Origin: Patescibacteria group bacterium
GTDB lineage: Bacteria > Patescibacteriota > Minisyncoccia > Phycocordibacterales > UBA9973
Reading direction: 5' to 3'
DNA length: 64,000 nt
Assembly: GCA_038063535.1 (NCBI GenBank)
Contig: JBBTUV010000001.1
Location: 21,570-85,569 of the forward strand
In this document: positions 4,802-47,146 of the stretch, piece after piece
Layout of the letters: every line of letters starts with the position of its first letter
Position numbering within the stretch: the first letter of the stretch is position 1
Program-made: the position numbers and the translations under genes
The notes under the pieces: model-generated
Seen by the model: only the letters and a program-made list of their open reading frames with translations
Database searches by the model: none
Told to the model about the DNA's origin: nothing

Positions 4802-6237
4802 TAGTCTTTGCGAGGGAATAAGGGTTTCTCCGGTTTTTTGTTTTCTCTGATTAATTTTTTTATTTTCTCGCTAGTGTCTGGCAAGAGCGGATTTAGCATT
4901 CTGGCAATTACATATAACTCCTGAGTTATCTCAGTAATTATCTCCTTACCTTTTTTCTCATCCTTTTTGACAACTTTGAATGGTTCGGTCTTTTGAATTT
5001 TCTGATCAAGGTTATGGATTTTTTCCCAGACATAATCGGCGGCTTTCTTTACATCAAAAGTTTCTAAAAGCTCAAAATATTCTTTCAGTTCAGATTTCTC
5101 CGGGATCTCCGGGGTCTTTTCTAAATATTTTTCCGAAAGCGTCAAAATTCTCGAAACTAAATTGCCCAGGCCGTTCGCGAGGTTCGCGTTGTAGGCCTCT
5201 TTTATGCCCTCCGGTGTTACGTCCGTATCTTCAAACGAATTCACGTGCCGGAGCAGGAAGTAACGCACAGCATCCTTTCCATACTCGTTCACCAGGTCAA
5301 TGGGATTTATAACGTTGCCGAGCGACTTGGACATTTTTCCCCCGCCGGAGGTTATAAATCCATGGTAAACCACCTTATCGGTGTTTTTTACGCCAGCAGA
5401 CATAAGCATCGCCTGCCACATCAGAGACTGAAAACGAACTTGATCCTTACCGGCTGTTTGAACAACCTCCCCGTCTACCCAAAATTTTTTAAAATTCCCT
5501 GATTCATTCGGCCATCCCAAAGTAGAAATATAGTTAGTGAGCGCATCGAACCACACATACATTACCTGCGAATCATCGCCCGGAACCGGCACACCCCAGG
5601 AGAGCCTTTCTTTCTCTCTTGAGATGCTAAAGTCTTCCAAGCCGCCCTCGACGAATTTTACCGCTTCACCCCGCCGCCACTCGGGTAAAATTACACCGGG
5701 GTGAGAGAGGTAATCAAACAGTTTATCTTGATACTTTGAAAAACGGAAAAAATAATTTTCTTCCTCAAGAACTTTGATCTCAAGATTCAGATGCAGAAGG
5801 CATCTTCCCTTCTCATCTAAGTCGGTATCTCTTTTGAAAGATTCACAGCCGACACAATACTTTCCCTTATATTTTTTTTTATAGATATCACCCGCTTTAT
5901 CGCACCTTCTCCAAATTTCCTCGGCAGCTTTCTTATGAAGAGGGTCGGTGGTCCGTATAAAATTATCAACCGATATATTCAATACTTTCAAAAGTTCCTT
6001 GAAACGTAGAGAATACTTATCCGCATAAATTTTAGTATCTTTCTCGCCTGCACTCTGTGCTGACTCAAAAACTTTCTGCCCATGCTCATCCGTGCCGGTC
6101 GAGAAAAAAACATCTCTTCCTATTAATCTCTGATAGCGAGCGACGGCATCACTTTGCACAAACTCAAGCGCGTGACCCATGTGCGGATCCGCGTTTACAT
6201 AAGGAAGTGTGGCCGTTAGATAGAAACTTTTTTTCAT
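4801..6237 (-). CDS. metG: methionyl-tRNA synthetase
   Basis: LPYVNADPHMGHALEFVQSD (HIGH-class motif), KMSKSLGNV, Zn-knuckle CVGCESF. Confidence 0.95.
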   Translation of the reverse strand: MKKSFYLTATLPYVNADPHMGHALEFVQSDAVARYQRLIGRDVFFSTGTDEHGQKVFESAQSAGEKDTKIYADKYSLRFKELLKVLNISVDNFIRTTDPLHKKAAEEIWRRCDKAGDIYKKKYKGKYCVGCESFKRDTDLDEKGRCLLHLNLEIKVLEEENYFFRFSKYQDKLFDYLSHPGVILPEWRRGEAVKFVEGGLEDFSISREKERLSWGVPVPGDDSQVMYVWFDALTNYISTLGWPNESGNFKKFWVDGEVVQTAGKDQVRFQSLMWQAMLMSAGVKNTDKVVYHGFITSGGGKMSKSLGNVINPIDLVNEYGKDAVRYFLLRHVNSFEDTDVTPEGIKEAYNANLANGLGNLVSRILTLSEKYLEKTPEIPEKSELKEYFELLETFDVKKAADYVWEKIHNLDQKIQKTEPFKVVKKDEKKGKEIITEITQELYVIARMLNPLLPDTSEKIKKLIRENKKPEKPLFPRKD

Positions 6238-7301
6238 TGTCTCATCCGACTTTGAGCTTTCTTCTTCTCTAGATCGCTGATGAGCTCCATTACGAACACG
6301 GCGATGGGAATCGCAAGTATCATCCCCCAGACACCGCCCAGTTCATAACCGATAAGGATGGCAAGGATGATGACAAGGGGCGAGAGGCCCACGATCGACT
6401 TGATCAGGAGTGGTGCGAAGAGGAATACTTCGAACTGGTGGATGATGAGATACGCACCGGCTACTAGAAATGCGCTGGTGAGCCCTCCCGAGAGATAGGA
6501 AACCGAAGCCGCCGGGATGAGCGCGATTAGTGTTCCGTACGGGAAAAGCCCCATAAATCCTGCAAGAATTGCCAGGAGGAGCGCGTATTTGATCCCGAGG
6601 AGCGAGAGCACGAGGTAAACTAGCACCGCATCAAGGAGGCCCATCACCAGTTGTCCTTTTACCCAAAGGGCGATCTTGCGCCGAGAGCGTTGCCATAGGT
6701 CAACCGCATATGCCTCATAATCGGTGGGCAGGATGATCTGGAGGAACTTTTCTATCCCCCGCTCCTGCACGGAGAGATAGAAGGAAATTATCGTGATTAC
6801 GACCAAATTGAAAATGCTTCCGAAGGCTCCGGCGAGCGTCTGGAAAAATCCACCGGATAGATTGGAAACGAAAGCTTTGGAAGTAGTAATGAGGGTTGTC
6901 AGAGAAAGGCTGTGCGAGAGATTCGCGACGATGTCTTTGGCTCCGGAGAAAGCGTCATTTTTGAAGTAATTGATAAGTGCCGAATCAGGAATATAGGCGG
7001 AAAGAAAAACAGAGAGATTGTAAACTTCGGTTATGAGAAGCGGTGCGAAAAGATAAAACATTCCGGCGAGGGTTAGGATCGCTACCACGTAGCAAACGAT
7101 AACCGCCGGAACCCGCCCGAACCGAATCTTCCGGAAGTGCGGGATCGCGGACTCCATGAAAGATGCGATAACGATGGCAGTAAGAATAATGAGGATAAAA
7201 TCTCGAAGTATCCAGATGAGGTAAACACCTAAGATTATGAGCACGGCGCGGATCATCGTACCGGTCGAAATAGAGAGAGAGGGGTAGTCTTTGGGAGGCA
7301 T
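6234..7301 (-). CDS. AI-2E family (PerM/UPF0118) transporter
   Basis: About 8 TM helices. Conserved C-terminal pattern of the AI-2E family (ILAIPIAVFVMELI). 4-nt overlap with metG. Confidence 0.75.
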   Translation of the reverse strand: MPPKDYPSLSISTGTMIRAVLIILGVYLIWILRDFILIILTAIVIASFMESAIPHFRKIRFGRVPAVIVCYVVAILTLAGMFYLFAPLLITEVYNLSVFLSAYIPDSALINYFKNDAFSGAKDIVANLSHSLSLTTLITTSKAFVSNLSGGFFQTLAGAFGSIFNLVVITIISFYLSVQERGIEKFLQIILPTDYEAYAVDLWQRSRRKIALWVKGQLVMGLLDAVLVYLVLSLLGIKYALLLAILAGFMGLFPYGTLIALIPAASVSYLSGGLTSAFLVAGAYLIIHQFEVFLFAPLLIKSIVGLSPLVIILAILIGYELGGVWGMILAIPIAVFVMELISDLEKKKAQSRMRQ

Positions 7302-7308
7302 GCCAGGA

Positions 7309-8577
7309 TTATATCACAAAGATTTTTTTTAAGTCATTGTCCTTTTTGATCGGGCCGACCAGCGCAAGATTGAGCTTCCGGTTCTTGAAAATTTCTTGGG
7401 ATACGACGCGCAGATCCTCGCGGGTAACTGCGCGGATTTCCGCCGACCGCTCGTCGATCGTCTGGAGCTTTTTCTGAAGAAGCTCGGAGAGTCCGTAAAA
7501 GGAAGCGATGCTGTCGCTTGACTCAAGAGAAAGTTTCATCGTGCCGATGAGATATTCCTTCACTTTTTCAAGCTCCTCGGGCGATATGAGTTCGGCAGCC
7601 ATCCTTTTGCATTCCTCGAGTATCACTCCTATCACTTCGAGCAATCTTTGATTGGTGACGCCCGCCGAAACCTGGAAAACTCCGTGGTCGGTATAAGGAT
7701 CGTTGTGCGCGCGCACATAATAACCCACCCCCATTTCCTCGCGGAGCTTCTGGAAAAGGCGCGAACTCATGCCGCCGCCGAGCACTCCGGCGAGCACCGC
7801 GAGCGAAGGGCTCCTCTGGCTCGATAGCTTATGCGAGCGCGCCGCCAATACGAAATGAGTCTGATCGGTTTTCTTATATTCAGAGAGGATGCCGGGACGG
7901 GTTTGCCTCTCGGCCACTTTCCGTTTATCTACCTTCTGCCCCCTGGGAACCTCTCCGAAAACTTTTTTTATTTCATCGAGAACTTCCTTTTCGCTCACCT
8001 GCCCCGCCGCCACGATCACCGTCGCTTCCGGGAGATAGTGCATCCCCTTATAAGCGAGGAAGTCGAGCCGTTTCATCTTTCGGATATTTTCTTTTTCTCC
8101 GGCGATGTTCCAGCCCGCCGGCTGGTCTCCGTAGAGAAGTTTCATCGCGAGGTCTTGTACATGGCGGTTCGGCAGGTCCTGATACATATTTATCTCCTCG
8201 ATGATGACTCCTTTTTCTTTTTCCATCTCTTTCTCCGGGAAAGTGGAGTTAAGATAGATATCGGTGACCACGTCGAAGATCTGGCGAAAATGCCGCGCCT
8301 CGGCCTTGGCATAGTAGCCGGTGTATTCCTGCGCGGTAAAGGCGTTGTATTCGCTACCGAGGGCATCGAGCTCTTTAGATATATCAATTGCCTTTGGGCG
8401 CTTTATAGTACCCTTGAAACACATGTGCTCGAGGAAATGGGAAATGCCATTCACTCTTTTTTCTTCATACTTCGAGCCAGCCTCCACTAGGACCAAAACC
8501 GTCACCGTCGGATTATCTTTCATCGGGACGGTAATCACCCGCAAGCCGTTTCTCAAAACTTTCTTCGAAAGTTTCAT
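7309..8577 (-). CDS. M16-family zinc peptidase (insulinase-like)
   Basis: Inverted zinc motif HFLEHMCFKGT (HxxEH) near the N-terminus. 422 aa, typical two-domain size. Confidence 0.8.
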   Translation of the reverse strand: MKLSKKVLRNGLRVITVPMKDNPTVTVLVLVEAGSKYEEKRVNGISHFLEHMCFKGTIKRPKAIDISKELDALGSEYNAFTAQEYTGYYAKAEARHFRQIFDVVTDIYLNSTFPEKEMEKEKGVIIEEINMYQDLPNRHVQDLAMKLLYGDQPAGWNIAGEKENIRKMKRLDFLAYKGMHYLPEATVIVAAGQVSEKEVLDEIKKVFGEVPRGQKVDKRKVAERQTRPGILSEYKKTDQTHFVLAARSHKLSSQRSPSLAVLAGVLGGGMSSRLFQKLREEMGVGYYVRAHNDPYTDHGVFQVSAGVTNQRLLEVIGVILEECKRMAAELISPEELEKVKEYLIGTMKLSLESSDSIASFYGLSELLQKKLQTIDERSAEIRAVTREDLRVVSQEIFKNRKLNLALVGPIKKDNDLKKIFVI

Positions 8578-9788
8578 TCAATTTTCTCTCCGAGATATTG
8601 TATGAGTCCAGAAACCTTTATTCTCTTTTGCTTCCCGCTGTCACGATCGCGGACGGTAACGGTGCCATCTGTAAGCGTGTCGAAATCTACGGTCACGCAG
8701 TAAGGTGTGCCGATCTCGTCCTGGCGGCGATAGCGCTTGCCGATGTTGCCGTTGTCGTCAAATTCAACTCTGCCATATTCGCGTTTCAATTCACTAAAGA
8801 TTTTCTCGGCATATTTTACCAATTCGGGTTTATTCTTAAGAAGCGGAGAAACACAGGCGATAACTGGTGCAATCTGCGGTTTAAGTTTCAAATACACGCG
8901 GACCTCCTTATTCTTTACATCTTCGCTGTAAGCGGACAAAAGTAAGGCAAGCACGACTCGATCAACTCCCAAGGACGGTTCAATCACATGCGGGACAATC
9001 TTTTCTTTAGTCTCCTCGTCCAAATATTCGAGCCGATGATTTTTGAGATCAAAATCAGTTCGGTAAGCAAGCCCGAAAAGTTCTTTGCGGCCGAAAGGAT
9101 AATCGAATTCAAAGTCGATCGTTCGCTTTGAGTAATGAGCCCTGTCTTTTTCCGGAACTTCCAGTTCCTGTACTTTTTTCTGGTCTATCCCGACTTCCTT
9201 TATCCAGCCGAGCATTTCACCGCGCCAGTACTCAAAATACTTCTCCCATTCCTTTCCGCGAACAAAATATTCTATCTCCATCTGCTCGAACTCGCGCTGG
9301 CGGAAAATAAAATCCCGCGGGGCAATTTCGTTCCGAAAAGCTTTCCCGATCTGCGCCACGCCGAACGGCAGTTTTGGATGAAAGCTGTCGACGACATTTT
9401 TGAAGTTAACAAATATCCCCTGCGCGGTTTCGGGGCGCAGATAGGCAGGCGTCGCCTCCTCACCGGCGCCGACGGAAGTCTTGAACATCACGTTGAATTG
9501 TTTCCCGTCCTCCAGCGGATCGGAAAATCCCGCGACATGGCCGGAAAATTCCCAAACTTTCGGATTCAAAATGAGAGCAGAATCAAGCCCGAACATATCG
9601 CGCCGGGCATCGACAAACTTATTCCACCAAGACTTTTTTAAATTATTCTTAAGCGCTACTCCATAGTGCCCCCAATCGTAAAATCCGGCCAGGCCGCCGT
9701 AAATTTCCGAGCTTGGAAAGACAAAACCTCGTCTTTTGCAAAGACTTACAATTTTCTCCATTAGGTTGTCGCTCTCTTTTTTCATCAT
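8574..9788 (-). CDS. glyQS: glycyl-tRNA synthetase (dimeric class II type)
   Basis: IVSLCKRRGFVFPSSEIYGGLAGFYDWGHYG, class II motifs, C-terminal anticodon-binding domain. Confidence 0.9.
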   Translation of the reverse strand: MMKKESDNLMEKIVSLCKRRGFVFPSSEIYGGLAGFYDWGHYGVALKNNLKKSWWNKFVDARRDMFGLDSALILNPKVWEFSGHVAGFSDPLEDGKQFNVMFKTSVGAGEEATPAYLRPETAQGIFVNFKNVVDSFHPKLPFGVAQIGKAFRNEIAPRDFIFRQREFEQMEIEYFVRGKEWEKYFEYWRGEMLGWIKEVGIDQKKVQELEVPEKDRAHYSKRTIDFEFDYPFGRKELFGLAYRTDFDLKNHRLEYLDEETKEKIVPHVIEPSLGVDRVVLALLLSAYSEDVKNKEVRVYLKLKPQIAPVIACVSPLLKNKPELVKYAEKIFSELKREYGRVEFDDNGNIGKRYRRQDEIGTPYCVTVDFDTLTDGTVTVRDRDSGKQKRIKVSGLIQYLGEKIE

Positions 9789-11704
9789 TCCGACACAATA
9801 TCCCCACCGGGAGGAAAAGACGAATCGCCCACAAGTCGGGTGGTAAGCGTTCCTTTCTGCAATCGTACATCCACATTAGCAAAATCGTCGTGGCCGGTCA
9901 AAACCGATTCATTTACGATTGTCGGTGCGGTGCCAACCTGCGAAAGCGAAGGAGTAAAGCCAACCTGAAAAGAAATGGAGACGGCTCCCGCGCTAATGCC
10001 GGCACCCTTTGGAATATTTCCGACATTCCAAACAACCTCGCGGGTCTGGGTGTTATAGGTAAGGTCAGAGTCCTTCGGAGAAATCGGCCCGAGAAACTTG
10101 ACCCAAGACGGCAGACTCGAGCGAAGCTGCGCTTTGGAGATATTGTTGGAAGTATTCGAAAGTGACCAGGTGATAGTGTAGGTGGTCTCCCGCTCGACCT
10201 TCGGGGGAACCGAGCCTCGATTGGTAAATGGCCCGGAGAGGAAGAGCGCTTTTGCCGCAAAACCGACGTCCGAACTTATCCTTACCGTTTTTGATTCCTT
10301 GTTGCTCACTTCTTTTGCATCATATGTCTCAAGCGGCTGCCGGCCGGAGATCGAAACTTCGATATCTATCGAAGGCTGTGAAAGCACTCCCTTGGAAGCT
10401 CCGAAGAGAGACACGGAAGAGAGAGAAAAGGGTACCGAGCCCACGGCACCAGGGCCGACTTCAGCAAAATCCCTTTCGCTATTCTTATCCCAAGTTATCG
10501 TATCGTCGAGCGAATTATAAAAACCTTTAGGGCTATAGATAGTTTTCCGGTCGAGGGCATTACCGGAGAGTTTGGCACGGATCACAAGGTCGTTCACTTT
10601 CGTCTCGAGATTGTTCGCCCATCGGATCTCTCCTTCGATCGGAGTGCGTGAGCTCGATGCATACTCACCGCTATAGACGCCGTTGATGTAAAGCCGCGCT
10701 TCGATTAGGGCTTTTTTGATCGCAACACGGTGGCTTATTGTATTGAAGATGGTCTCGATTACCCCGCGGGTTCGCGCAGATTCGAGGCCGCCGGATACCC
10801 GAAAGGTTTTCTCTTCTCCGTCGAAGACATCGAGCATTTTTCCTGAAATGGTTACCGAGCTATCCGCTCCTGGTGAAAGATCGCCAATCGCCCAAACATT
10901 GTTTCCAAAAGAGGGAGCTGGCGTTGCCGAAGAAAACTGGAAGCCAGTTGGGTAATCGACCCGGAGAAGGAGACCGATTACGGGCTTAGAGGCGTTGTCA
11001 ATAGCTTTTACTGTAAGCGAAAAATTTTGGTTCGGGCTGGCTTCCTCAGGGGCGCTTACCACCAGGTCGACTGGTGTGGAATTGATCGTTACGTCGTAGA
11101 TCCTTTCTTTTTTGAAGAAAGAATTCGAGTTCTCCACCCGGTACTCGATGGAAATTCTTATGCTTCGGACGCTGCCCTGCTCGCCGAAGAGAACAGGTTT
11201 TACATTCGCGCTCCGGGAAGCACCGGCGGGGATGTCGCCGAGGGTTTCTCGGATCCGTTCTGTTTCGCCGGAAAGATCGGCGCTTTTCGGATATTCAACT
11301 ATAAGGTCGACAAGCTCAAGGTCCACGCTATTGCGGTTCGCCACATCGATGGTAAGTGGCAGCTCCTCACCGCCGGCGGAAAAAGTGTTCCCCAGCACCG
11401 AGATATCGATGTTTTTCGCGGAGACGGTGTTTTTATCGGAAAAAAAAGAGTACCCTCCGTAGATGAGAGCTAGAATGAAAAACGCCAGAGAAAAGAAAAA
11501 AAATTTCTTGAAAAATTTCGACTTCTTAAAAGACTGGCCTGGTTCCGGCGCTGGAGTGCCCCTCTCCCATGATTCGGGCACATCGAGATGCCGCGCGGGG
11601 GTAAAGCTGTCGCGGTGCTCGACTTTAGTGGGAAAATCTTTGCTCCAGAGTTTGCTTTTTAGTTCTTCGAGGCGGTTAAGTTTCTCTTTATCGTCGGGCG
11701 GCAT
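9785..11704 (-). CDS. hypothetical membrane-anchored protein with large extracytoplasmic beta-rich region
   Basis: Cytoplasmic N-terminus, then a single TM (FFFFSLAFFILALIYGGYSFF), then about 560 aa rich in S/T/N/G. No catalytic motif seen. Confidence 0.5.
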   Translation of the reverse strand: MPPDDKEKLNRLEELKSKLWSKDFPTKVEHRDSFTPARHLDVPESWERGTPAPEPGQSFKKSKFFKKFFFFSLAFFILALIYGGYSFFSDKNTVSAKNIDISVLGNTFSAGGEELPLTIDVANRNSVDLELVDLIVEYPKSADLSGETERIRETLGDIPAGASRSANVKPVLFGEQGSVRSIRISIEYRVENSNSFFKKERIYDVTINSTPVDLVVSAPEEASPNQNFSLTVKAIDNASKPVIGLLLRVDYPTGFQFSSATPAPSFGNNVWAIGDLSPGADSSVTISGKMLDVFDGEEKTFRVSGGLESARTRGVIETIFNTISHRVAIKKALIEARLYINGVYSGEYASSSRTPIEGEIRWANNLETKVNDLVIRAKLSGNALDRKTIYSPKGFYNSLDDTITWDKNSERDFAEVGPGAVGSVPFSLSSVSLFGASKGVLSQPSIDIEVSISGRQPLETYDAKEVSNKESKTVRISSDVGFAAKALFLSGPFTNRGSVPPKVERETTYTITWSLSNTSNNISKAQLRSSLPSWVKFLGPISPKDSDLTYNTQTREVVWNVGNIPKGAGISAGAVSISFQVGFTPSLSQVGTAPTIVNESVLTGHDDFANVDVRLQKGTLTTRLVGDSSFPPGGDIVSE

Positions 11705-11716
11705 TTAAAGATTATA

Positions 11717-12268
11717 TCATAAGTGCGTTTCCTTGAGCGTCTGGTTGATGAGCGCGAGTATCTCCCCTCTTCGCTCTGTCACGCCAGATACGAGCTCATT
11801 TATTTTACTCTCACCGATATATCCAAGGTGATGCAAAACTTTAAGGACAATTATTATTTCCGAATTCTGCATTTCCCCCCCACTCCCCACTTGCTCGAGC
11901 GCCGAAAATCCATCGAGGATTTCGAGGAAAAGCGGCTCGTTAGAGCCTTCCCCAGGAAGAAGACGTCGCAAGAGCCGAGCGATGTTTGAAACTATTTTAA
12001 AGACTTCAAGATTTCTCGAAAGATCTTCAAGTTTGCCGGTCGGCGCGGCGCTTCCGATCCGCCAAAAATCTCTGCCTTGCACTAGATCAATTTTTACGTA
12101 AGAGTAGTCCTGCAAAATGTAGCGCAGCTTCGAAGATATTTTCCGCACTCCCGACGCCCGCGCCGTCACCATGCCGAGCTCGCGGGTAAAAACGTAAAAA
12201 TATTTTCCATCCTCGCCGAAATTCCTGCTGCCCAAAATTATCCCTTCAGTATGATAAATGTGATGCAT
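11717..12268 (-). CDS. recO: RecO-like recombination mediator (short form, no zinc finger)
   Basis: N-terminal OB-fold pattern HTEGIILGSRNFGEDGKYFYVFTRELGMVTARASGVRKISSKL...LQ. Only 183 aa. Confidence 0.55.
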   Translation of the reverse strand: MHHIYHTEGIILGSRNFGEDGKYFYVFTRELGMVTARASGVRKISSKLRYILQDYSYVKIDLVQGRDFWRIGSAAPTGKLEDLSRNLEVFKIVSNIARLLRRLLPGEGSNEPLFLEILDGFSALEQVGSGGEMQNSEIIIVLKVLHHLGYIGESKINELVSGVTERRGEILALINQTLKETHL

Positions 12269-12906
12269 TACAAATCTTCTTCTTTTCCTAGTTCTAGTTT
12301 TTTGAATTCAATCCCGAGAGGCGGCAAAACATTTCCCGGCCATTTCCAAATGAAAGATGCCCACTCTTGGATAAACGCATCATGCACTGGAAAGGAAATT
12401 CGTGGTTTTAGGGCTTGGGCATAAAGGAGAGCGTCTTTCATCCGCATCCAGGGCCCAGCCACGGGTAGCGCCAGAATCTCAACGGGATGTCCAGGGTCCT
12501 CGAAGGCATCGCCGGGGTAGCAGAGCGAATCGATCATGTACCCGGTATTCTGCACCCGCCCCATCGATTCGTAAATTTCTGCGTGCAAATTGCCGAAGGA
12601 GCAAATAGCCACCCCGGAGATCTCTTTTTCTTGGCCTTTTTCAACTACCTGGTGGGTAATGCCCGCTTGGTCGAGGAGTTTCCCGACTGCGGTGTTGGTA
12701 ATGACAAGAGCTTTCGGGCTACTCTCAAGAACCTTTTTCAAAGTCTCAATGTGTAGATGGTCCCCGTGCTCGTGAGTAATTAAAATAGCGGTGATGTTTT
12801 CCTCTCTCTCTGCCCCCTTGGTAAAATCTCCCGGATCAGTCATTATCCTGACCCCTTCCTTTGGCTCCGCCACGAAACAGCAGTGCCCTATTTTTTTTAC
12901 CTTCAT
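12268..12906 (-). CDS. MBL-fold metallo-hydrolase
   Basis: ILITHEHGDHLHI (HxHxDH) plus downstream His/Asp ligands. 1-nt overlap with the recO-like gene. Confidence 0.75.
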   Translation of the reverse strand: MKVKKIGHCCFVAEPKEGVRIMTDPGDFTKGAEREENITAILITHEHGDHLHIETLKKVLESSPKALVITNTAVGKLLDQAGITHQVVEKGQEKEISGVAICSFGNLHAEIYESMGRVQNTGYMIDSLCYPGDAFEDPGHPVEILALPVAGPWMRMKDALLYAQALKPRISFPVHDAFIQEWASFIWKWPGNVLPPLGIEFKKLELGKEEDL

Positions 12907-12950
12907 CTACCTATTTTATCACAGATACTTTGCTTCTTCATTTCAAAAAT

Positions 12951-12990
12951 ACATATTATGCATTATGGGAGCGGCCGCTACCATTATATG
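12951..12990. repeat. ~40-bp direct repeat copy A (ACATATTATGCATTATGGGAGCGGCCGCTACCATTATATG), upstream of the MBL/recO-like operon
   Basis: Aligned by eye with copy B at 13571-13610. 26/30 identities in the core. Central NotI-like palindrome GCGGCCGC flanked by inverted CATAATGG / CCATTATG half-sites. Confidence 0.7.
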
Positions 12991-13007
12991 ATATATGATA
13001 AATGTAT

Positions 13008-13568
13008 CTATAGGTTGAAGTATTTTTCCAGTATATTTCTGTTAGTGATATCTTTTGCCAAGATTAGATGGACATACTTCCCGATCTCCCAGTAATTTGC
13101 AATAAAGTCAATCTCTTTCTGGCACCGAAAGGGATAAACCCAAACGCTGTCATTAAATTTAACAAATCCGAGCTCCTTCATTTTCTCCCTCAAGGAATCC
13201 CGAGCGGCCTTTTTCTTCTCGGGGATATCAAAAACTACAACACGAAAATTCCTATCCCATATCTTGGGCTCTTTGATTTTCATCTCTTCATAATTGAAGC
13301 GTAGATAAACTTTCCGCCCGTTCTCCGTCAAAACCAGCTTGTGATGCTTGCCTTCCTCTACAATTTCGATTAATCTCTGCTTTCTTAGTCTAAGAAAATA
13401 TGTTGAGATCCGCTTTGGCCTCTCATTTAATCCAAAAATTTCCTTTATAAAATATTTCGTGACCTTGTAACTTGCCCTCCGATTCGATAAAGCAACACTG
13501 ATACCTATTCCCACCCCAAGGGCACGGATGATTTTCCCGCTATTCGATTCCTTGTCAATTACTCTCAT
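13008..13568 (-). CDS. PaaX-like transcriptional regulator (N-terminal wHTH, C-terminal Cas2/VapD-like fold)
   Basis: C-terminal segment RVVVFDIPEKKKAARDSLREKMKELGFVKFNDSVWVYP matches the Cas2-fold region of the PaaX family. N-terminal part resembles a winged helix. Confidence 0.5.
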   Translation of the reverse strand: MRVIDKESNSGKIIRALGVGIGISVALSNRRASYKVTKYFIKEIFGLNERPKRISTYFLRLRKQRLIEIVEEGKHHKLVLTENGRKVYLRFNYEEMKIKEPKIWDRNFRVVVFDIPEKKKAARDSLREKMKELGFVKFNDSVWVYPFRCQKEIDFIANYWEIGKYVHLILAKDITNRNILEKYFNL

Positions 13569-13637: not shown

Positions 13638-16600
13638 TCAGATCACTAACTTTTTGAGCTCTTCGATTATGGGCGCAACCGCTTCATCAGTGATATCTTC
13701 TGGCTTTATTTTGCAATGCGCAAAAATCTGCTTCTCGATTTCCGCTCCACAGGCAACAAACTTTTGTCGTTCTTCTTCCATGCCGCGATTTTTCCATTGA
13801 TACCGAACCCGTGCTTCTTCCATGCGTTCATCGTATGAGACCACCCCATTAGGATTAACTCGATTGTCAGAATAACTCATTATCTTCACATCCATCTCGC
13901 TAGAATCTCTATGTTCACAAAGTAAACTGAAACGATCCTGAGTTGCCAGATAAATAGCTTTTTCCGGTAAACCAATCTCTTTCATGATTTGGATTGCTGG
14001 CACGTGCTCATCATGCCCATACTTATTCACATACTCGCTTTTAACATTTTCCCAGTATTTTATTTCTTCCTTATCAAAATCGGAGAAATAAGTCAGATCG
14101 GTTTTAATAATATTCCCCATGTCGTGAAAAAGAGCCGCTAGTATCAGATCGTTTTTGTCGACCGGTGAAGAAAAATTATCGCAAATCAAAGTCACCACGG
14201 CTGCAACACGGAGCATATGCTCCTGTAATCGCGGAAATATCTTGTATTTCTTATAAATTTCCATTACCTTAAGCGGCATTTTGTCTCCAGGATTAAGGCC
14301 CAGTTTCTTCCTGCGATCCTGAAGTTCGCGCATAAATTCACGATACTCCCCTTCCATTTTTAACTCAGTAGTTATCTCAGTAGATAATTTAAATTCACTC
14401 CCCACCGTTACTTCTTTTACATTGAGTTCGTCTTTAATTAATTCAAGATATTCACTTGATAACTTTACGGACTTTATAACTTGCAACTCTTTGAGCGGTT
14501 GCCGCACAGGAATTCCGGCCTTCTGCCTAGCTTCAAGTCCCTGCGTCACAACCTCGCGAGTTATTCTCATATTCTTGAGAATATTAGAATGTATTTTCCT
14601 GGTCTTCGGCCACTCGCATATATGCACGCTCTCCTCATCTTTTTCTGTGCGCAGCTTAAGCCAAATATCTTCCGCAGTAAAAGGCGCAAACGGTGCCATC
14701 ACTTTTGCTAGGGTTTTTAGAACAAAATACAAGGTTTTCTTGGCATCTTTGTCTCCTTCTTTTATTCTTTCTCTAGAGCGGCGCAGATACCAGGTCGAAA
14801 GGTCGTTGATAAAATCACGAATCGTGCGTGTGGGCTCCATGAGTTTGTAATTGTCGAGCGATTCGGTAGTGAAATTTATGAGTTCATTAAGTCGACACAG
14901 GATCCATTGATCCAGAACATTTTTTGATTTTGGCTCTTCGTTTTTCTCTAAATTTTTATTTCGATATAATTCATAAAACGCAAGCACATTGTAAAGTAGC
15001 GTGAAAACTTGCTGGCGCAAGAGATGCACGGTCTTTTCGTCGAAATTTTTCGACTCTCCGGGCTGATTGACCGAATACATCCAGAGGCGCAAGGTGTCGG
15101 CCCCGTACTTACCAATCATCTCCCACGGGTCTACCACATTGCCCACAGATTTCGACATTTTCTTGCCCTGCGCATCGAGCAAATGCCCGAGGCATATCAC
15201 GTTTTCGTAGGCGCGGCCTCTTCCCATCAAAACCCCGACCGCGTGGAGTGTATAGAACCAACCGCGAGTCTGATCGATGGCTTCGGAAATATAGTCGGCC
15301 GGATATAAAATCTTTTTCGCATCGAAGGGATAGTGATCCTGCGCAAACGGCATCGCCCCCGAGTCGAGCCAGACGTCCATCACTTCTTTTACCCGCCGGA
15401 ATTCCTTGCCGTTCTTTTCCAATATGATTTCGTCAATATACGGCCGATGCAGATCAAGCTCGAAATCGTCATTGCGCGGAAGCGGGATTAATTTGACCGG
15501 CTTGACCTCGCCATTTTTGAAGAAATCTTCCGAAGAACTTTTAAGTACCATCGCTTCTCTTTCATTCCTGCCCTCCGCTGCTGAATGGAGCATCCAGAGA
15601 GAATCTTCATGCGCGACTATAAGAATTTTTTTATTTTTATAAGTCTTTTCTATTTCCTTTAGAAATTTTCCCACTCGCATCTTTACGTCATAAAGTGACT
15701 CGCCGCCCGGCGCTGCTTCTCTAAACCTGTTGCTAGGATTTGAAAAAGCTGCCCAATACTCTTTGATCGGCCGGCCCTCAAGATTTCCAAACCCGATTTC
15801 CCGAAGACGCTCGTCATAGACAACTGCGCTCTCAGAGAGTTTTAGTTCCTTTCGAACAATTTCCGCCGATTGGCGAGTCCGCTCTAGTGGAGAGGCAATA
15901 ATAAAATCAATGCTGTGCTTTTTAAGTTTCTCGGCGGAATTAATTACTTGTTTCTCGCCCTTCTGTGTTAGAGGATTCTTTGCGTTTGGATCGGAGCTCA
16001 CAAACCCTTTTTCGTTGCTCTCTGCTCCACCGTGGCGCATGAGGAGGTACTCGTTATTTGCACTCTTTGAATATTTTTTGAGCGTGGCCAGCGAATCGAT
16101 TACGATTTTCTCTCCGTCCTCTGCCATCCACACCGGCAAAGGGGTCCCCCAGTAGCGCTCACGCGATATTGCCCAATCCTTTACATCGCGGAGCCACTCA
16201 CCAAAGCGCCCCTCGCGGATATGCGCGGGCTCCCAGTTTATTTTTTTGTTTTCACTGATCAGTTTTTTCTTAATTTTTGGCTCCGACATCCGGATGTACC
16301 AAGAATCGCGGGCATAATATATGAGCCGTGTCTTGCATCGCCAGCAAAATGGGTATGAGTGGGTATAAGACTCTTTTGCAAAGACTAAATTTCTCTTTTG
16401 CAGGTCCTTCAGGATATCCACCGCAAGCACTTCATCCACTACTGATCTACCGGAGAGCCAGTCCGTTCCATCTATAAATTTCCCGTCTGGGTCCACTAAA
16501 TGCTGCTTGGGTAAACCGACTTTTGTCCCAAGCTCAAAATCATCCTGCCCATACATGACAGCGGTGTGCACGATGCCGGTACCTTCTTCGGTCGATACAA

Positions 16601-17483
16601 AATCCGCTGCGTAAACCTTGTATGCATTTCCTATATTCTCGGGATTTTTGTTTTTAAGAAACGGGTAAAGCGGCTCGTATTCCATACCGATCATTTCGCT
16701 CCCTTTGTGCTCGGCAATAATTTCGTAATTTTCAAGAACACTTAACCTGTCTTTTGCAAGCACAAAAATTTCTTCCCCAACTTTTGCTTCTACATAAATA
16801 ATATCTTTCCCCACAGCTAGCGCCACATTCCCGGGCAAAGTCCACGGCGTCGTGGTCCAAGCCAAAAAATACGCATTCGGGAATCCAATAATCTTAAATT
16901 TTGCCGTGACCGACAAATCTTTCACATCTTCATACCCCTGCGCGAGCTCGTGCGAAGAGAGCACCGTGCCGCAGCGCGGGCACCAAGGAACAACTTTGTA
17001 ATCCTTGTATAAAAGTTTTTGCTTGTCTACATGGGCGATGATGTTCCAAACCGATTCAATGTAATCATTCTCGTATGTTATGTATGGATCCTCCTGATCG
17101 ATCCAAAATCCGATGCGCTCGGTAAATTTGCTCCAGTTGTCAACCTGTTCCCAAACATTCTTTCGGCATTCATCGTTAAATTTCGCCACACCGTATTTCT
17201 CAATCGCTTTTTTAGAATTGAGGCCGAGTTTTTTCTCGACTTGGAGCTCGACCGGAAGCCCATGAGTATCCCAGCCACCCTTCCGGCGCACATGATATCC
17301 GCGCATGGTCTTATATCTGGGAATAGCATCCTTAAAAGCCCGCGCCTCGAGGTGGTGAATGCCCGGCGCGGCGTTGGCCGTCGGCGGACCTTCATAGAAA
17401 ACAAATTCTTTGCCACCCTTTTTGAGCGACTTTTCAAAAATTTTATTTTTCCTCCAGAATTCTAAAATTTCCTCCTCACGCAT
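13638..17483 (-). CDS. ileS: isoleucyl-tRNA synthetase with inserted histidine-phosphatase domain and C-terminal HD domain
   Basis: IleRS hallmarks: PPTANAAPGIHHLEAR (HIGH region), editing domain, WAISRERYWGTPLPVW, DVWLDSG, KMSKSVGNVVDP. Inserted at about aa 478-660: LLMRHGGAESN...SPLERTRQSAE...IVAHEDSL (RHG histidine-phosphatase/PGM motifs). C-terminal about 200 aa: H..(28)..LFHDMGN...D (HD-domain metal ligands). Confidence 0.9.
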   Translation of the reverse strand: MREEEILEFWRKNKIFEKSLKKGGKEFVFYEGPPTANAAPGIHHLEARAFKDAIPRYKTMRGYHVRRKGGWDTHGLPVELQVEKKLGLNSKKAIEKYGVAKFNDECRKNVWEQVDNWSKFTERIGFWIDQEDPYITYENDYIESVWNIIAHVDKQKLLYKDYKVVPWCPRCGTVLSSHELAQGYEDVKDLSVTAKFKIIGFPNAYFLAWTTTPWTLPGNVALAVGKDIIYVEAKVGEEIFVLAKDRLSVLENYEIIAEHKGSEMIGMEYEPLYPFLKNKNPENIGNAYKVYAADFVSTEEGTGIVHTAVMYGQDDFELGTKVGLPKQHLVDPDGKFIDGTDWLSGRSVVDEVLAVDILKDLQKRNLVFAKESYTHSYPFCWRCKTRLIYYARDSWYIRMSEPKIKKKLISENKKINWEPAHIREGRFGEWLRDVKDWAISRERYWGTPLPVWMAEDGEKIVIDSLATLKKYSKSANNEYLLMRHGGAESNEKGFVSSDPNAKNPLTQKGEKQVINSAEKLKKHSIDFIIASPLERTRQSAEIVRKELKLSESAVVYDERLREIGFGNLEGRPIKEYWAAFSNPSNRFREAAPGGESLYDVKMRVGKFLKEIEKTYKNKKILIVAHEDSLWMLHSAAEGRNEREAMVLKSSSEDFFKNGEVKPVKLIPLPRNDDFELDLHRPYIDEIILEKNGKEFRRVKEVMDVWLDSGAMPFAQDHYPFDAKKILYPADYISEAIDQTRGWFYTLHAVGVLMGRGRAYENVICLGHLLDAQGKKMSKSVGNVVDPWEMIGKYGADTLRLWMYSVNQPGESKNFDEKTVHLLRQQVFTLLYNVLAFYELYRNKNLEKNEEPKSKNVLDQWILCRLNELINFTTESLDNYKLMEPTRTIRDFINDLSTWYLRRSRERIKEGDKDAKKTLYFVLKTLAKVMAPFAPFTAEDIWLKLRTEKDEESVHICEWPKTRKIHSNILKNMRITREVVTQGLEARQKAGIPVRQPLKELQVIKSVKLSSEYLELIKDELNVKEVTVGSEFKLSTEITTELKMEGEYREFMRELQDRRKKLGLNPGDKMPLKVMEIYKKYKIFPRLQEHMLRVAAVVTLICDNFSSPVDKNDLILAALFHDMGNIIKTDLTYFSDFDKEEIKYWENVKSEYVNKYGHDEHVPAIQIMKEIGLPEKAIYLATQDRFSLLCEHRDSSEMDVKIMSYSDNRVNPNGVVSYDERMEEARVRYQWKNRGMEEERQKFVACGAEIEKQIFAHCKIKPEDITDEAVAPIIEELKKLVI

Positions 17484-17516: not shown

Positions 17517-19175
17517 TTACATTCTCTCCGGGGCCTTGATGCCCAAGAGATACAGCCCCTTTTCGAGGACTTTGGCGTAGGCCGAGGTAAGAGCCAGCTT
17601 GTAGGGCGAATAGATATCTTTCACGTCGAGAATTTTATTGCTTCCGTAGTAACTATTGAACGCACGAGCGAGGTCGATAAGATAATTGGCAATGTGGTGC
17701 GGCTCGTATTCTTGGGCAGCGCGGGCAACCACTTCTGGGAATCTGTAAAGAAGTTTCTCCGTTTCCGACACTTCAGCCGGAAGCTCATTGAAATTGGGAA
17801 ACATGTTTTCCTCTTTGGCTTTTGCAAGAACTGATTTTGCTCGAGCGTATGAATATTGCAAATACGGACCCGAATCGCCCTCGAGCGAAACCGATTTCTC
17901 GACGTCGAAAATCACATCCGCGCCGGCGGCTTGCCGGAGAATCACATATTTTATCGCCGCCACCGCCGCATCGATATTGTCGCGGGCTTTTCCTTTGAGC
18001 TCGGAGATAAGATCGAGAGCGGGGAGCGCCGTTCCCTCGCGCGAGGATATTTTCCCCGCTTTCCCGCGGGAGAGGCGCATCAGCCCGTGAGTGATGTGAA
18101 AAATTTTTCCTTCGTATTTCTTATCTATCAGGGAAAGCGCTTTGGCCACTACCCTCATGTATTCTTTCTGCTCGCTCCCGGTTACCATGATCGCAAGCGA
18201 GAGATCCCGCACTTGATCAAGTTTGAGATACGCAAGACCGAGCTCCTTCCCTTCATATGTTGGCAGGCCTTCTTTGGTCAGAAACACGCGAGTGTGAAGC
18301 GACGGATCGTGCTTCTCTGCGCGGAAGATGACCGCGCCCTCGCTTTCCTCGAAAATCTTGCCGATATTTTCTCGGACTAATTGCTCTCCCCAAACGGCAG
18401 CTTTGCTCTCGAGGAAATAAAAGTCGAATTTGGTGCCGAGAATTTTGTAAACTTCCTCGAAAGCCTCCATCGTCGCTTCGAAGCCCCAGGTGTAGAGATC
18501 ATTTATTTCCCCATCGCTCCGTTTGTATATCTTTTTATTTATCTCGTCGATCTCATGCTTCGCCTCCGGGTCAGTCTCATACGCCTCCGCTCCGTAGGCG
18601 TAGGCCTTGCCGATGTAGAGAGCCTGATTCTGCAGAGTTTCGTTTTTGAGCCTGTATTCTTCGGGCTTTTTCAAAAGGCCGTAAATGGCCCGTGCCACGT
18701 GCAGGCCCACATCGCCTTGATAGTTCGCGCGCAGGACTTCTGCCCCGGAGTACTCAAGCACACGCGCGACCGCTTCCCCGATCGCATTCGTCATCAGGTG
18801 TCCGATATGCAAGGGTTTGAAAGGGTTCGGGTCGGTGTACTCGACCATGATCTTTTTGCCCTTGTTTAAATTATTTTTTCCGAAATCCTCGTCATTTAAA
18901 ATTTTCTTCACAGAATCCTGGAAAAAATATTTATTGAGGTAAAAATTAATGAAACCGGGCCCCGCTACTTCCACTTTCTCGATTTCACTCGGCATATTTT
19001 TTTTGAGTTCCGCAGCGATTTCCTCTGCCTTGCCTTTGCCAAGCCTAAAAGCCACGTTCGTCGAGTAATCACCCATTATTAAATCCGCCGGATGCTCAAG
19101 GTGAACTGCATCTCCCTGTACCTTGAGGGCCTTGAGCGAATTTTCTATCGATTTTTTTATTTTTTCTTCGATCAT
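17517..19175 (-). CDS. argS: arginyl-tRNA synthetase
   Basis: N-terminal Add-1 domain, catalytic HIGHLMTNAIGEAV, C-terminal DALR anticodon-binding domain. Confidence 0.95.
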   Translation of the reverse strand: MIEEKIKKSIENSLKALKVQGDAVHLEHPADLIMGDYSTNVAFRLGKGKAEEIAAELKKNMPSEIEKVEVAGPGFINFYLNKYFFQDSVKKILNDEDFGKNNLNKGKKIMVEYTDPNPFKPLHIGHLMTNAIGEAVARVLEYSGAEVLRANYQGDVGLHVARAIYGLLKKPEEYRLKNETLQNQALYIGKAYAYGAEAYETDPEAKHEIDEINKKIYKRSDGEINDLYTWGFEATMEAFEEVYKILGTKFDFYFLESKAAVWGEQLVRENIGKIFEESEGAVIFRAEKHDPSLHTRVFLTKEGLPTYEGKELGLAYLKLDQVRDLSLAIMVTGSEQKEYMRVVAKALSLIDKKYEGKIFHITHGLMRLSRGKAGKISSREGTALPALDLISELKGKARDNIDAAVAAIKYVILRQAAGADVIFDVEKSVSLEGDSGPYLQYSYARAKSVLAKAKEENMFPNFNELPAEVSETEKLLYRFPEVVARAAQEYEPHHIANYLIDLARAFNSYYGSNKILDVKDIYSPYKLALTSAYAKVLEKGLYLLGIKAPERM

Positions 19176-26969: not shown

Positions 26970-27377
26970 ATGGATGATTGCATTTTTTGCAAAATAATCA
27001 GAGGAGAAATCCCATCGACCAAAATCTACGAGGATGGCGATGCTTTTGCATTTCTGGATATCGCTCCAGTCAACGTGGGCCACACCCTTGTTGTACCGAA
27101 ACAACATTTCAAGAATGTCTACGAAACTCCGGACGAAGTTCTCCAGAAAGTAATGACTGCGGCAAAGAAGATCGCGGAAGCGCTCAAAGCACTACCCTCC
27201 GACGGCGTGAACGTGACGATAAACAACGACTCCGCCGCTGGGCAGGTCGTTTTCCATTTCCACGTGCACGTAATCCCGCGCATCGCGGGCGACGGATTTC
27301 CTCTCTGGCATAGCCGCCGGCCTTATAACGAAGGAGAAGCCAAAGGAACAGCAGAAAAAATCATGAGAGGGCTTTGA
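26970..27377 (+). CDS. HIT-family nucleotide hydrolase/transferase
   Basis: CIFCKIIRGEIP. Histidine triad HFHVHVIPR. Confidence 0.85.
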   Translation: MDDCIFCKIIRGEIPSTKIYEDGDAFAFLDIAPVNVGHTLVVPKQHFKNVYETPDEVLQKVMTAAKKIAEALKALPSDGVNVTINNDSAAGQVVFHFHVHVIPRIAGDGFPLWHSRRPYNEGEAKGTAEKIMRGL

Positions 27378-45151: not shown

Positions 45152-47146
45152 ATGAATACATATCTTTGGTTTGCAGTGCTAAGCTCGGTGGTCGCAATCG
45201 TCTATGGATTATTCCTGGCCAGATCGATACTCAAGAAAAGCGAGGGCGACGAGAAGATGAAAAAGATATCTCTCGCCATCCGCGAGGGCGCAAAGGCGTA
45301 TTTGAACCGCCAGTACAAGACGATCGCTTACATCGCCGCGATCCTTTTCGTGATCCTCTGGCTTTTCATTGGTCTTACCACCGCGCTCGGGTTCCTCTTC
45401 GGCGCATTTCTCTCCGCGCTGGCCGGATACGTGGGCATGAATGTCTCGGTCCGCGCGAATGCCCGCACTGCCGAAGCCGCAAAAACCGGACTCAAAGAAT
45501 CCCTCGCGCTTGCGTTTCAGGGCGGCTCGGTTACGGGGCTACTTGTCGTCGGGCTTGCGCTTCTCGGCGTTGCTCTATTTTTCATATTGACTGGTGACGT
45601 GAAAGCGCTCATCGGCCTCGGGTTCGGCGGCTCACTCATCTCGGTCTTTGCGCGGCTGGGCGGCGGAATTTTCACCAAAGCGGCTGACGTGGGCGCGGAT
45701 CTCGTCGGTAAAATCGAAGCTGGTATTCCGGAAGACGATCCGCGAAACCCGGCAGTGATCGCGGACAACGTGGGAGACAACGTCGGCGACTGCGCTGGTA
45801 TGGCAGCGGACCTTTTCGAAACTTATGCGGTGACATCGATCGCCGCCATGCTCCTCGGTTCGCTTCTCTTTGTGGGAATGGCAGGCGCTCTTATATACCC
45901 CCTCGCGCTCGGCGCAGCGGCAGTGCTCGCCTCGATCGCTGGCACTTGGTTCGTGCGGTTAGGAAAAGGAGGAAATATTATGGGCGCTCTATATAAGGGG
46001 CTCATCGCCTCGGGGACAATCTCCGCAATTCTTTTCTACCCGCTCACTAACGCCCTCATGGGCGCAAACGGCATCTACAGCACCGCCGCCCTATATCTTG
46101 CAACGCTCCTAGGCCTTGCCGTCACAGGACTCTTGGTGCTTATCACTGAGTATTACACCTCCACGAAATTCAAGCCGGTCAGATCGATCGCCGAAGCTTC
46201 TCGCTCTGGCCATGGTACCAACATCATCCAGGGTCTCGCAGTCTCGATGAAATCGACAGCGCTTCCTGTCATTGTGATCGTCGGCGGAATTCTCGCCGCC
46301 CATGAACTTGCAGGACTCTACGGTATCGCCATCGCTGCGATGTCGATGCTTTCGATGGCCGGTATCATCGTCGCGATAGATTCTTACGGGCCGATCACCG
46401 ACAATGCCGGGGGTATCGCCGAGATGGCCGGGCTGCCAGCCGAAGTCCGAAAAGTCACGGATGCACTCGACGCAGTCGGCAACACCACTAAAGCTGTCAC
46501 CAAAGGCTACGCCATCGGCTCGGCCGGCCTCGCGGCACTCGTTCTCTTCGCTTCTTACACGCAAGAGTTCTCCGGAGCCGGAGTGCAGCTCGATTTCTCA
46601 CTTGAGAATCCACTTCTTATCGCCGGGCTTTTCATCGGAGGACTTCTCCCCTATTGGTTCGGAGCACTTTCAATGGAAGCAGTCGGGAGAGCAGCCGGGG
46701 CGGTCGTCGAAGAAGTGCGGAGGCAGTTCCGCGAGATCAAGGGCATCATGGACGGCAGCGGTGCACCGGAATACGGCAAGTGTGTAGACATCGTCACCAA
46801 AAACGCGATACGCGAGATGATAGTGCCTGCTCTTATCCCGGTGCTTGCTCCGATACTGGTGGGATTTCTCCTGGGTCCGGTTGCGCTCGGAGGACTCTTG
46901 ATGGGCTCGATCATTACCGGGCTTTTCGTGGCTATCTCGATGACTTCCGGGGGCGGAGCTTGGGACAATGCGAAGAAATATATCGAAGCCGGGAATTTGG
47001 GCGGTAAGGGCTCGGATGCACACAAGGCCGCCGTTACCGGCGACACCGTCGGCGACCCGTATAAAGACACGGCCGGCCCGGCAATAAACCCGATGATAAA
47101 AATACTCAATATCGTTGCCTTGCTTCTGGTCGCCCTCTTGATATAA
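45152..47146 (+). CDS. hppA: membrane-bound proton/sodium-translocating pyrophosphatase
   Basis: About 15 TM helices. V-PPase signatures [57 protein letters not shown]. Confidence 0.9.

Follow-up and report, generated by a model that had tools for sequence, protein, structure and literature searches.

Why should an isoleucyl-tRNA synthetase (IleRS) carry two phosphohydrolases within one polypeptide? The question is raised by the ileS gene at 13638..17483 (minus strand) of a 64,000-nucleotide (nt) stretch of DNA from a Patescibacteria group bacterium (JBBTUV010000001.1 21,570-85,569, assembly GCA_038063535.1). This whole stretch is referred to as the window. The gene is a single open reading frame that starts with ATG, has no interruptions and encodes 1281 amino acids (aa) plus a stop codon. 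A first-pass annotation had described the product as an IleRS with an inserted histidine phosphatase and a C-terminal HD domain. Searches with the Pfam and NCBIfam hidden Markov models (HMMs) support this description. Pfam places both extra domains above threshold, and the coordinates proposed at that stage agree with an insert at aa 453-677 and an HD module at aa 1069-1281. What the first-pass annotation missed is the main explanatory fact. Judged from gene order and sequence, both extra modules are captured neighbour genes of ileS. The explanation that we favour, with moderate confidence, is that this is an intact housekeeping type-2 IleRS (IleRS2) of a Paceibacteria-type Patescibacterium that absorbed two flanking phosphohydrolase genes, and that the absorbed modules are probably active hydrolases.

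Relatives of the protein and of the locus were collected in two ways. A homologue set (P numbers) comprises 119 other proteins among the best matches listed from a 5.8-billion-protein collection. A locus scan (L numbers) with an HD alignment pattern covered one genome per GTDB species and found the HD module encoded in 435 species genomes, of which the best 80 loci were classified. Among these 80, the HD module is part of a triple fusion in 21, is encoded directly downstream of ileS in 28 and is one gene removed from ileS in 4. The other 27 have no ileS upstream of the HD gene, with enough upstream sequence to judge in ~17 of them.

How the HD gene came to be joined to ileS can be read from the relatives in which it is still separate. 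The free-standing HD protein has ~215 aa and 846 database matches. In L003 and L004 its gene begins 8 nt before the stop codon of an ileS that has the phosphatase insert and no HD module, and in L001 a HAD hydrolase gene lies between ileS and the HD gene. An unfused IleRS runs ~60 residues past the sequence '...GLTPSDVISL'. In the fused forms, as the DNA shows, '...GLNPGDK' leads directly into 'MPLKVMEIYKKYKI', the beginning of the HD protein with its initiator methionine still in place. In the window this junction, GDK followed by MPLKV, lies at ~14277-14282, and the same pattern, P-x-D-K followed by M-P/A, is common to all fused homologues (P0001-P0041, L011-L074). The fusion is not a matter of read-through, because ~57 ileS codons are absent and the HD part begins in frame at its own start codon. 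The ~215-aa HD hydrolase, whose gene lies downstream of ileS in relatives, is here joined to IleRS at its own start codon and replaces the last ~57 residues of the ARD3 domain.

The phosphatase also has free-standing counterparts. When the insert was used to query 1.84 billion cluster representatives, the best 150 matches included 94 with class Ia synthetase flanks and 45 that are apparently stand-alone proteins of ~190 aa. Stand-alone histidine phosphatases account for at least 318 clusters at E<=1e-10; their source names are PhoE or 'histidine phosphatase family', and Staskawiczbacteria are among the sources. With 187-198 aa they are end-to-end colinear with the insert at 40-50% identity, and they share with it an N-x-Y before the RHG motif and a G-E-x-R-E-L ending. 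In seven of the eight contexts checked, the stand-alone phosphatase gene lies between argS and ileS (one of the seven is a 1.5-kb contig whose flanks were read as the C-terminus of ArgRS and the N-terminus of a class Ia enzyme). The neighbouring ileS is 0-25 nt away, encodes 918-984 aa without an insert and is of the HYGH or GVHH subtype. The conserved row of argS and ileS with, where present, the two hydrolase genes (order argS, histidine phosphatase, ileS, HD) is found in L005 (phosphatase gene at 6001-6570), L007 (2120-2707), L009 (6001-6573), L091 (5001-5564), L094 (5001-5591) and L095 (5001-5597). In the window's protein this PhoE/CobC/PspA-like phosphatase, stand-alone in relatives at ~190 aa, sits in the tip of the second zinc-knuckle hairpin of the catalytic domain.

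Could the triple fusion be an artefact instead? Separate genes might have been joined by chimeric assembly, by a frameshift or by an erroneous stop codon, or an element resembling an intein might be removed by splicing. The 8-nt overlap of the HD gene with the ileS stop in relatives means that a sequencing error could fuse the two. However, the ~57 missing ileS codons and the in-frame junction at the HD start codon do not fit such an error, and 40 distinct proteins as well as 21 GTDB species loci have the identical junction. An identical protein (NCBI MEK7569297.1, from a metagenome-assembled genome of a Patescibacteria group bacterium, 345.7-kb contig) is encoded on five contigs, which come from three sources. 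The five contigs and the widely shared in-frame deletion lead us to reject a chimera or frameshift, which the first-pass annotation had named as a danger, to the extent that sequence data permit. An intein or self-splicing insert is likewise rejected: Pfam finds no intein, Hint or homing-endonuclease family at E<=1, and the insert is a complete histidine phosphatase that is colinear with stand-alone enzymes. We give an artefact of any of these kinds hardly any credence.

The architecture is real, widespread in one clade and not rare. It recurs in many distinct sequences at 59-73% identity. The PF00300 insert is carried by 118 of the 119 listed homologues, and 39 of these (1290-1384 aa) also have the PF01966 HD domain. 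The remaining one, P0059, has HD only, without the insert. Where the homologues have named sources, these are Paceibacterota, Nomurabacteria or Parcubacteria. It had been left open at the outset whether such a protein might prove common and already annotated. Common it is (118 of 119 homologues, 21 of 80 loci), but the only NCBI name of MEK7569297.1 is the generic 'class I tRNA ligase family protein', so that two extra enzyme activities are invisible in the annotation. The claim that no IleRS with either domain has been described also held up in the literature searched, which covered IleRS and other synthetases with histidine phosphatase or HD domains, synthetase insertions in the candidate phyla radiation, and IleRS2. 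The architecture is likewise not mentioned in a preprint on C-terminal remodelling of IleRS (10.64898/2026.02.03.703510).

One aspect of the history is less tidy. In rough neighbour-joining trees, both of the IleRS core and of the HD module, the HD-fused forms are scattered among unfused ones. Scattered fusions that share one junction might reflect repeated identical deletions or recombination at the 3' end of ileS. Poor tree resolution is another possible explanation. Base composition gives no clear hint of a foreign block; the HD part has a G+C content of 0.39-0.42, and upstream the values are 0.45-0.51.

What kind of synthetase received these modules? The NCBIfam ileS equivalog TIGR00392 matches at 846.8 bits (cut-off 621.4), in two stretches with the insert between them, and Pfam tRNA-synt_1 (375.6 bits) likewise covers two separate stretches of the 1281-aa protein. 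The N-terminal part (aa 1-452; 16128..17483, minus strand) holds the first half of the catalytic Rossmann/HUP fold, the CP1 editing domain and the first zinc site. Its motifs are GIHH (42-45), CPRC (168-171), TTTPWT (210-215), CWRC (380-383) and, at its end, WAISRERYWGTPLPVW (437-452). GTGIVH...GQDDF is a further CP1 editing motif found in the protein. The C-terminal part (aa 678-1068; 14280..15452, minus strand) holds the second catalytic half, the anticodon-binding domain, ARD2 and a truncated ARD3, with DLHRPYID at 677-684, DVWLDSG at 703-709, KMSKS at 775-779 and Pfam Anticodon_1 at 858-999. The class I hallmarks quoted in the first-pass annotation are thus where they were said to be, with one correction. 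The position of the HIGH signature is occupied not by HIGH itself but by GIHH (aa 42-45, nt 17349-17360, minus strand).

This GXHH variant is common to the whole homologue clade, with the consensus PGIHHLEAR. Type-2 IleRS are the only enzymes in which GXHH is known; it supports catalysis there and gives mupirocin hyper-resistance (10.1101/2023.01.31.526100). The top structural match is the IleRS2 of Priestia megaterium (PmIleRS2; 8C8V/8C8W, Foldseek E 2e-58, 31-32% identity), and the IleRS structures of T. thermophilus and yeast are also close. The C-terminal organisation is that of type 2 (Anticodon_1, DUF5915) and there is no C-terminal treble-clef zinc-binding domain. The protein is not MupA or MupB, as the NCBIfam exception models for these give 756 and 746 bits at a cut-off of 1900. 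By these sequence and fold comparisons the core is an ordinary type-2 IleRS of the GXHH subtype. It shares with enzymes such as those of Deinococcus radiodurans and P. megaterium the core, the ARD/DUF5915 C-terminus, GXHH and the G34 pocket. In contrast to them it has a phosphatase insert of ~225 aa, it lacks the INS subdomain, and an HD enzyme stands in place of the last ~57 ARD3 residues. The loss of INS is described as a frequent one (preprint 10.64898/2026.02.03.703510).

Does the fusion leave anticodon recognition intact? The DUF5915 match (aa 1033-1083) stops at profile position 154 of 195, which corresponds to an incomplete ARD3. The missing tail of ~57 residues is equivalent to PmIleRS2 976-1032, and unfused relatives have ~60 further C-terminal residues at this point. 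In a phmmer alignment to PDB 8c8v, Q1055, R1058, K1059 and L1063 (LQDRRKKLGL, nt 14295-14324) correspond to Q961, R964, K965 and L969 of PmIleRS2. These four residues form the G34 anticodon pocket of ARD3, in which R964A leads to a 1000-fold loss of activity (10.64898/2026.02.03.703510). As far as the alignment can tell, then, the fusion spares the G34-recognition pocket, and only the ~57 residues that follow are gone.

The insert itself (aa 453-677; 15453..16127, minus strand) contains a Pfam His_Phos_1 domain at aa 480-641 (nt 15561-16046; PF00300, 118.7 bits, cut-off 21.7, E 3.4e-34). Its motifs are MRHGGAESN (482-490), SPLERTRQSAE (531-541) and VAHEDSL (623-629), and R483, H484, G485, N490, R535, E562, R603 and H625 are invariant in 117/117 insert-bearing homologues. 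The insertion point, between PLPVW and DLHRPYID, is known from relatives to be the tip of the second zinc-knuckle hairpin. There a CxxC...CxC/CxxC zinc knuckle is kept in P0107, P0059 and the IleRS of L095, and P0107 keeps WQCxxC...CxC around the same insert. By contrast, all four cysteines of the second knuckle are lost in the window's protein, which has MAEDGEK and EKNGKEF instead (aa ~453-467 and ~678-699; flanks at 15387-15452 and 16083-16127, minus strand).

In the context of the whole protein the insert is modelled with a pLDDT of ~90-96, and its best PDB matches are TIGAR, PspA and CobC (E ~1e-9 to 1e-11). It falls under every NCBIfam equivalog cut-off: 86.8 against 162.9 bits for cobC, 86 against 225 for dPGM_arch, 85 against 326 for the RNase H/phosphatase model, 62.7 against 350 for PspA and 65 against 261 for GpmB. 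It has the motif ExxxGxxEG, which we take to mark the phosphatase rather than the mutase subgroup. With the dPGM equivalogs far under cut-off and this motif present, a glycolytic phosphoglycerate mutase is rejected, and the sequence puts the insert on the PhoE/CobC/PspA-like phosphatase side of the superfamily. It has the R-H-G...R...E...H catalytic set in common with the phosphatases of that group. A precedent for a phosphatase fused to a nucleic-acid enzyme is the bifunctional RNase H/acid phosphatase Rv2228c (NF005567, 81-85 bits). What sets the insert apart from PhoE, CobC, PspA and Rv2228c alike is that it is nested within the catalytic fold of another enzyme.

The HD module (aa 1069-1281; 13641..14279, minus strand) starts at M1069, the start codon of the free-standing gene. 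It matches HD PF01966 at aa 1088-1197 (32.6 bits, cut-off 22, E 1e-7), with LFHDMGN at 1118-1124, and HD_3 PF13023 at 30.4 bits (cut-off 22.5). Against an HMM of its own family it scores 328 bits. The predicted metal ligands are H1089, H1120-D1121 and D1206. In 121 HD modules, fused and free, H1120, D1121, N1124, K1127 and D1206 are invariant and H1089 is present in 119. Four cysteines, C1101, C1189, C1245 and C1257, are 92-99% conserved across the same set; together they might make up a structural metal site or a redox site, which would be unusual for an HD domain. A further distinctive mark of the family is the C-terminal motif CKIKPEDI.

That both extra domains fold independently, as the first-pass annotation expected, is borne out by modelling. 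The HD module alone gives a pLDDT of 95.8 (AlphaFold2), and in a model of aa 82-1281 (1200 aa) both accessory regions reach ~87-97. The overall pTM of that model is only 0.62. The high regional values together with this pTM imply that the domains fold on their own and that their mutual orientation is uncertain.

What does the HD module hydrolyse? One clue is that its profile, when run against PDB sequences, finds HDDC2 first (E 0.0018), although only over the N-terminal ~70 residues. The 5'-(deoxy)nucleotidases YfbR, HDDC2 and YGK1 (HD_3) are thus the closest family by sequence and share the H...HD...D core. They differ in that the similarity is confined to these ~70 residues and in that the module has the four cysteines and CKIKPEDI. 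The module is also under the cut-offs of the YfbR-like model PF12917 (17.8 against 25.9) and of the 5'-deoxynucleotidase model NF003009 (16.7 against 122). In Foldseek every E-value is 0.16 or higher; HDDC2 and YfbR come first by E-value, with TM-scores of ~0.3. The module forms a family of its own, nearest by sequence to the YfbR/HDDC2 nucleotidases and with generic fold matches.

A different assignment had been put forward at the outset. Synthesis of diadenosine tetraphosphate (Ap4A) by aminoacyl-tRNA synthetases is established. By analogy with YqeK, the HD domain, together with the phosphatase, might remove Ap4A, other dinucleoside polyphosphates or alarmones made by the IleRS, so that the protein would be a self-contained make-and-break signalling module. 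YqeK is indeed a small all-helical HD protein of a similar size, it gives the highest TM-scores in the Foldseek search (0.45/0.49), and the spacing H1089...H1120-D1121...H1160...H1191...D1206 resembles its residues, with a comparable H..HD..H..H..D order. In S. pyogenes YqeK the two-metal site includes His29, His91, His117 and Asp135 (PMC11857287). The invariant K1127 fits too, as YqeK likewise has a lysine after the HD motif.

However, the analogy is weak in sequence. No YqeK NCBIfam model is found at E<=1 and no YqeK PDB chain at E<=10, either with phmmer or with the family profile, whose top match is HDDC2. The extra histidines H1160 and H1191 are only 83% and 74% conserved in the 121 modules, and the HD gene is unlinked to ileS in many genomes. 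Histidine phosphatases are phosphomonoesterases and are not known to hydrolyse Ap4A. A HIT-family gene had also been pointed out in the window. The gene is real (26970-27377, plus strand; 101 bits), but it is on the opposite strand at a distance of 9.5 kb and has no specific link to the fused ileS. In L094 (Staskawiczbacteria) a HIT gene is seen at 556-1005, ~2.3 kb upstream of argS and ~4 kb upstream of the phosphatase gene, with no closer linkage. We consider a signalling module of this kind unlikely. A dedicated Ap4A cycle is less likely than hydrolysis of nucleotide phosphoesters; Ap4A is possible and not favoured.

If the absorbed modules are indeed hydrolases, the protein would be trifunctional: it would charge tRNA-Ile and hold two active phosphoester hydrolases beside the synthetase. 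Any statement about their chemistry is a guess made with low confidence. Both modules might split phosphoesters of the nucleotide type, the HD module as a YfbR/HDDC2-like nucleoside-monophosphate hydrolase. With equally low confidence, the phosphatase might be a phosphomonoesterase with a nucleotide or a phosphorylated 3' end of tRNA as its substrate.

Perhaps, though, the extra domains are no longer enzymes. The HD module could stand in for the ARD3 tail, as the HD domain of the GlyRS beta-subunit gives precedent for, and the phosphatase could be a bulky spacer. It is true that the HD module takes the place of ~57 residues of a tRNA-binding domain, that C-terminal remodelling of IleRS is a known evolutionary hotspot (10.64898/2026.02.03.703510), and that the zinc-knuckle cysteines around the insert have been lost in this protein. 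The precedent differs in several ways. GlyRS is a class II enzyme, its HD domain is internal and sits in a separate subunit, and its similarity to the present module is no closer than that of other HD families. The present module, in contrast, is an independent gene in many relatives and has kept its metal ligands. The catalytic residues are as conserved in fused as in stand-alone forms (117/117 inserts; all but one in the 121 HD modules), and pseudo-enzymes are not expected when the catalytic residues of both modules are near-invariant in fused forms. Fused and free HD modules also intermix in the tree. A purely structural role is thus quite improbable. The aminoacylation and editing motifs, the phosphatase catalytic set and the HD metal ligands are intact and subject to purifying selection, and to judge from the conserved residues the three catalytic centres are all apparently functional.

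The next question is whether the modules work together with the synthetase. The same phosphatase module is found in other class Ia synthetases from metagenomes, at various sites, in several copies and with RHG in every copy (P0242, P0314, P0326, P0331, P0363 and P0373 carry it at other sites or in more than one copy). P0242, a ValRS-like fragment, has four copies. P0326 has two copies, as does P0331, with one of them before the anticodon domain, and P0314 has at least two, with a third starting at its broken end. In multi-copy IleRS the module is inserted behind the zinc knuckle, behind CWFESG or ahead of the anticodon domain. P0373 combines the phosphatase insert with an IS200-like transposase domain within the editing region and a C-terminal GNAT domain.

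From this repeated recruitment into IleRS and ValRS-like proteins it can be argued that the phosphatase works on something made or used at class Ia synthetases. Two further points favour coupling: the adjacency of argS, phosphatase and ileS is held across IleRS subtypes, and the insert is kept with perfect catalytic residues in more than 100 distinct sequences. We therefore judge the phosphatase to be probably coupled to the synthetase in function. For the HD module such coupling is a tentative suggestion, and we are more inclined to doubt it than to accept it.

Recruitment into enzymes that use the tRNA 3' end as a substrate invites the idea of end healing. In this scenario the hydrolases would remove a 2',3'-cyclic phosphate, a 3'-phosphate or the 3'-pyrophosphate left by RelA/SpoT-like toxins, so that the IleRS can charge its tRNA. 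Cyclic phosphodiesterase and phosphatase activities are found in the HD domain of the E. coli CCA-adding enzyme, and 3'-pyrophosphorylation of tRNA is reversed by alarmone hydrolases of the HD type. At loci where it is unlinked to ileS the HD gene adjoins a beta-CASP ribonuclease. Against this, neither module has specific similarity to any RNA-end phosphatase, and the geometry of the domains is uncertain at this pTM. There is also no evident reason why IleRS alone should repair general tRNA damage, and the insert has been lost in P0059. End healing is accordingly an idea that we hold to be improbable. The same low standing is given to a built-in repair or clearance step, in which the phosphatase, joined by HD in one sub-lineage, would act in cis on the tRNA 3' end or on an aminoacylation by-product; we know of no such step in any synthetase.

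Several observations weigh against the favoured reading of two absorbed and active hydrolases in a housekeeping enzyme. Roughly one HD gene in three or four lies away from ileS. At least one lineage can do without the insert: P0059 (L096 6001-9513) is an HD-fused IleRS that is nested among insert-bearing relatives and has a 35-aa zinc-knuckle linker at the insert site. No argS or phosphatase gene lies within 6 kb upstream of it, where AAA_21, Exo_endo_phos and HTH genes are found instead. Neither module reaches any NCBIfam equivalog cut-off and the HD fold matches are generic, which leaves both modules without an assignable substrate. Neighbouring genes are easily fused in tiny genomes where genes overlap, and adjacency in such genomes may mean co-expression only. 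Neutral capture by a permissive scaffold could explain much, because the IleRS here tolerates unrelated inserts, as P0373 illustrates. Finally, a second ileS may lie outside the 64 kb of genome covered.

What do the surrounding genes add? Upstream on the same strand, argS (17517..19175, minus strand) encodes an ArgRS of 552 aa (Arg_tRNA_synt_N, tRNA-synt_1d and DALR_1 in Pfam) and ends 33 nt from ileS. A gap of only 33 nt leaves no room for a T-box or leader before ileS. Over the whole 64 kb ARAGORN finds no tRNA genes, and no Rfam family reaches its gathering score. Directly downstream of the fused ileS is a gene for a 186-aa PaaX_M-like protein with the PaaX central Cas2-like domain (13008-13568, minus strand), which also follows the HD-fused ileS in L096 and L097. 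Then come, all on the minus strand and assigned with Pfam, genes for an MBL-fold protein (12268-12906), recO (11717-12268), a DUF11/CLIPPER-like protein (9785-11704), proS (8574-9788) and an M16 peptidase (7309-8577). The order of this downstream row (7309..13568) is the same in L001, L003, L004 and L096. In wider terms it reads argS, ileS, one or two small genes (MBL-fold in the window and in L001), recO, DUF11/CLIPPER-like, proS and M16.

Upstream of argS in the window are tmk and dut. At loci where the HD gene is not beside ileS, it follows ndk, and sometimes CYTH too, and precedes a beta-CASP ribonuclease in ~10 of 27 cases. The row in L047 (5427-8958), for example, consists of a VirD4/TraG-like ATPase (~910 aa), sometimes CYTH, ndk, HD, the beta-CASP ribonuclease and a SLOG-family gene; similar loci are L021, L030, L032, L033, L034, L038, L039, L044 and L083. 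The ndk/CYTH and tmk/dut contexts amount to a weak nucleotide-metabolism theme. Further along the window a membrane H+-translocating pyrophosphatase is encoded at 45152-47146 (plus strand; 902 bits). The pyrophosphate of aminoacylation therefore has a dedicated sink, and the phosphatase insert is considered unlikely to serve for its disposal.

It is clear that not everything about this protein is new. The IleRS2 core is known, as are synthetases with appended enzymes, such as the curated ileS_w_GNAT architecture (NF040702) and the GlyRS-beta HD domain. NF040702 is likewise a bacterial IleRS fused to an unrelated small enzyme. However, the present protein is not a member (302 bits, cut-off 1999), its extra domains are of other types and it adds an internal insertion; P0373 has both the phosphatase insert and a C-terminal GNAT. 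What is new is an undescribed architecture and its apparent origin by capture of neighbours.

Discussion of appended or inserted synthetase domains usually centres on eukaryotes. In the present case an essential bacterial synthetase has an apparently active phosphatase within its catalytic fold, throughout a large clade of uncultivated, ultra-small bacteria, and in a sub-clade an HD enzyme has also replaced part of the anticodon-binding C-terminus. Genomes with stand-alone, adjacent and fused modules can all be found today, along with a variant, P0059, that has lost the insert again, and this provides a ready series for studying the transition from gene to domain and the role of a phosphohydrolase beside a synthetase. 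If a built-in repair step does exist, the multi-copy insertions in IleRS and ValRS-like proteins would reflect selection for the activity at the synthetase. If the modules act on tRNA ends or aminoacylation by-products, quality control of a new kind would be at work; otherwise they would be a clear case of neutral gene capture in streamlined genomes.

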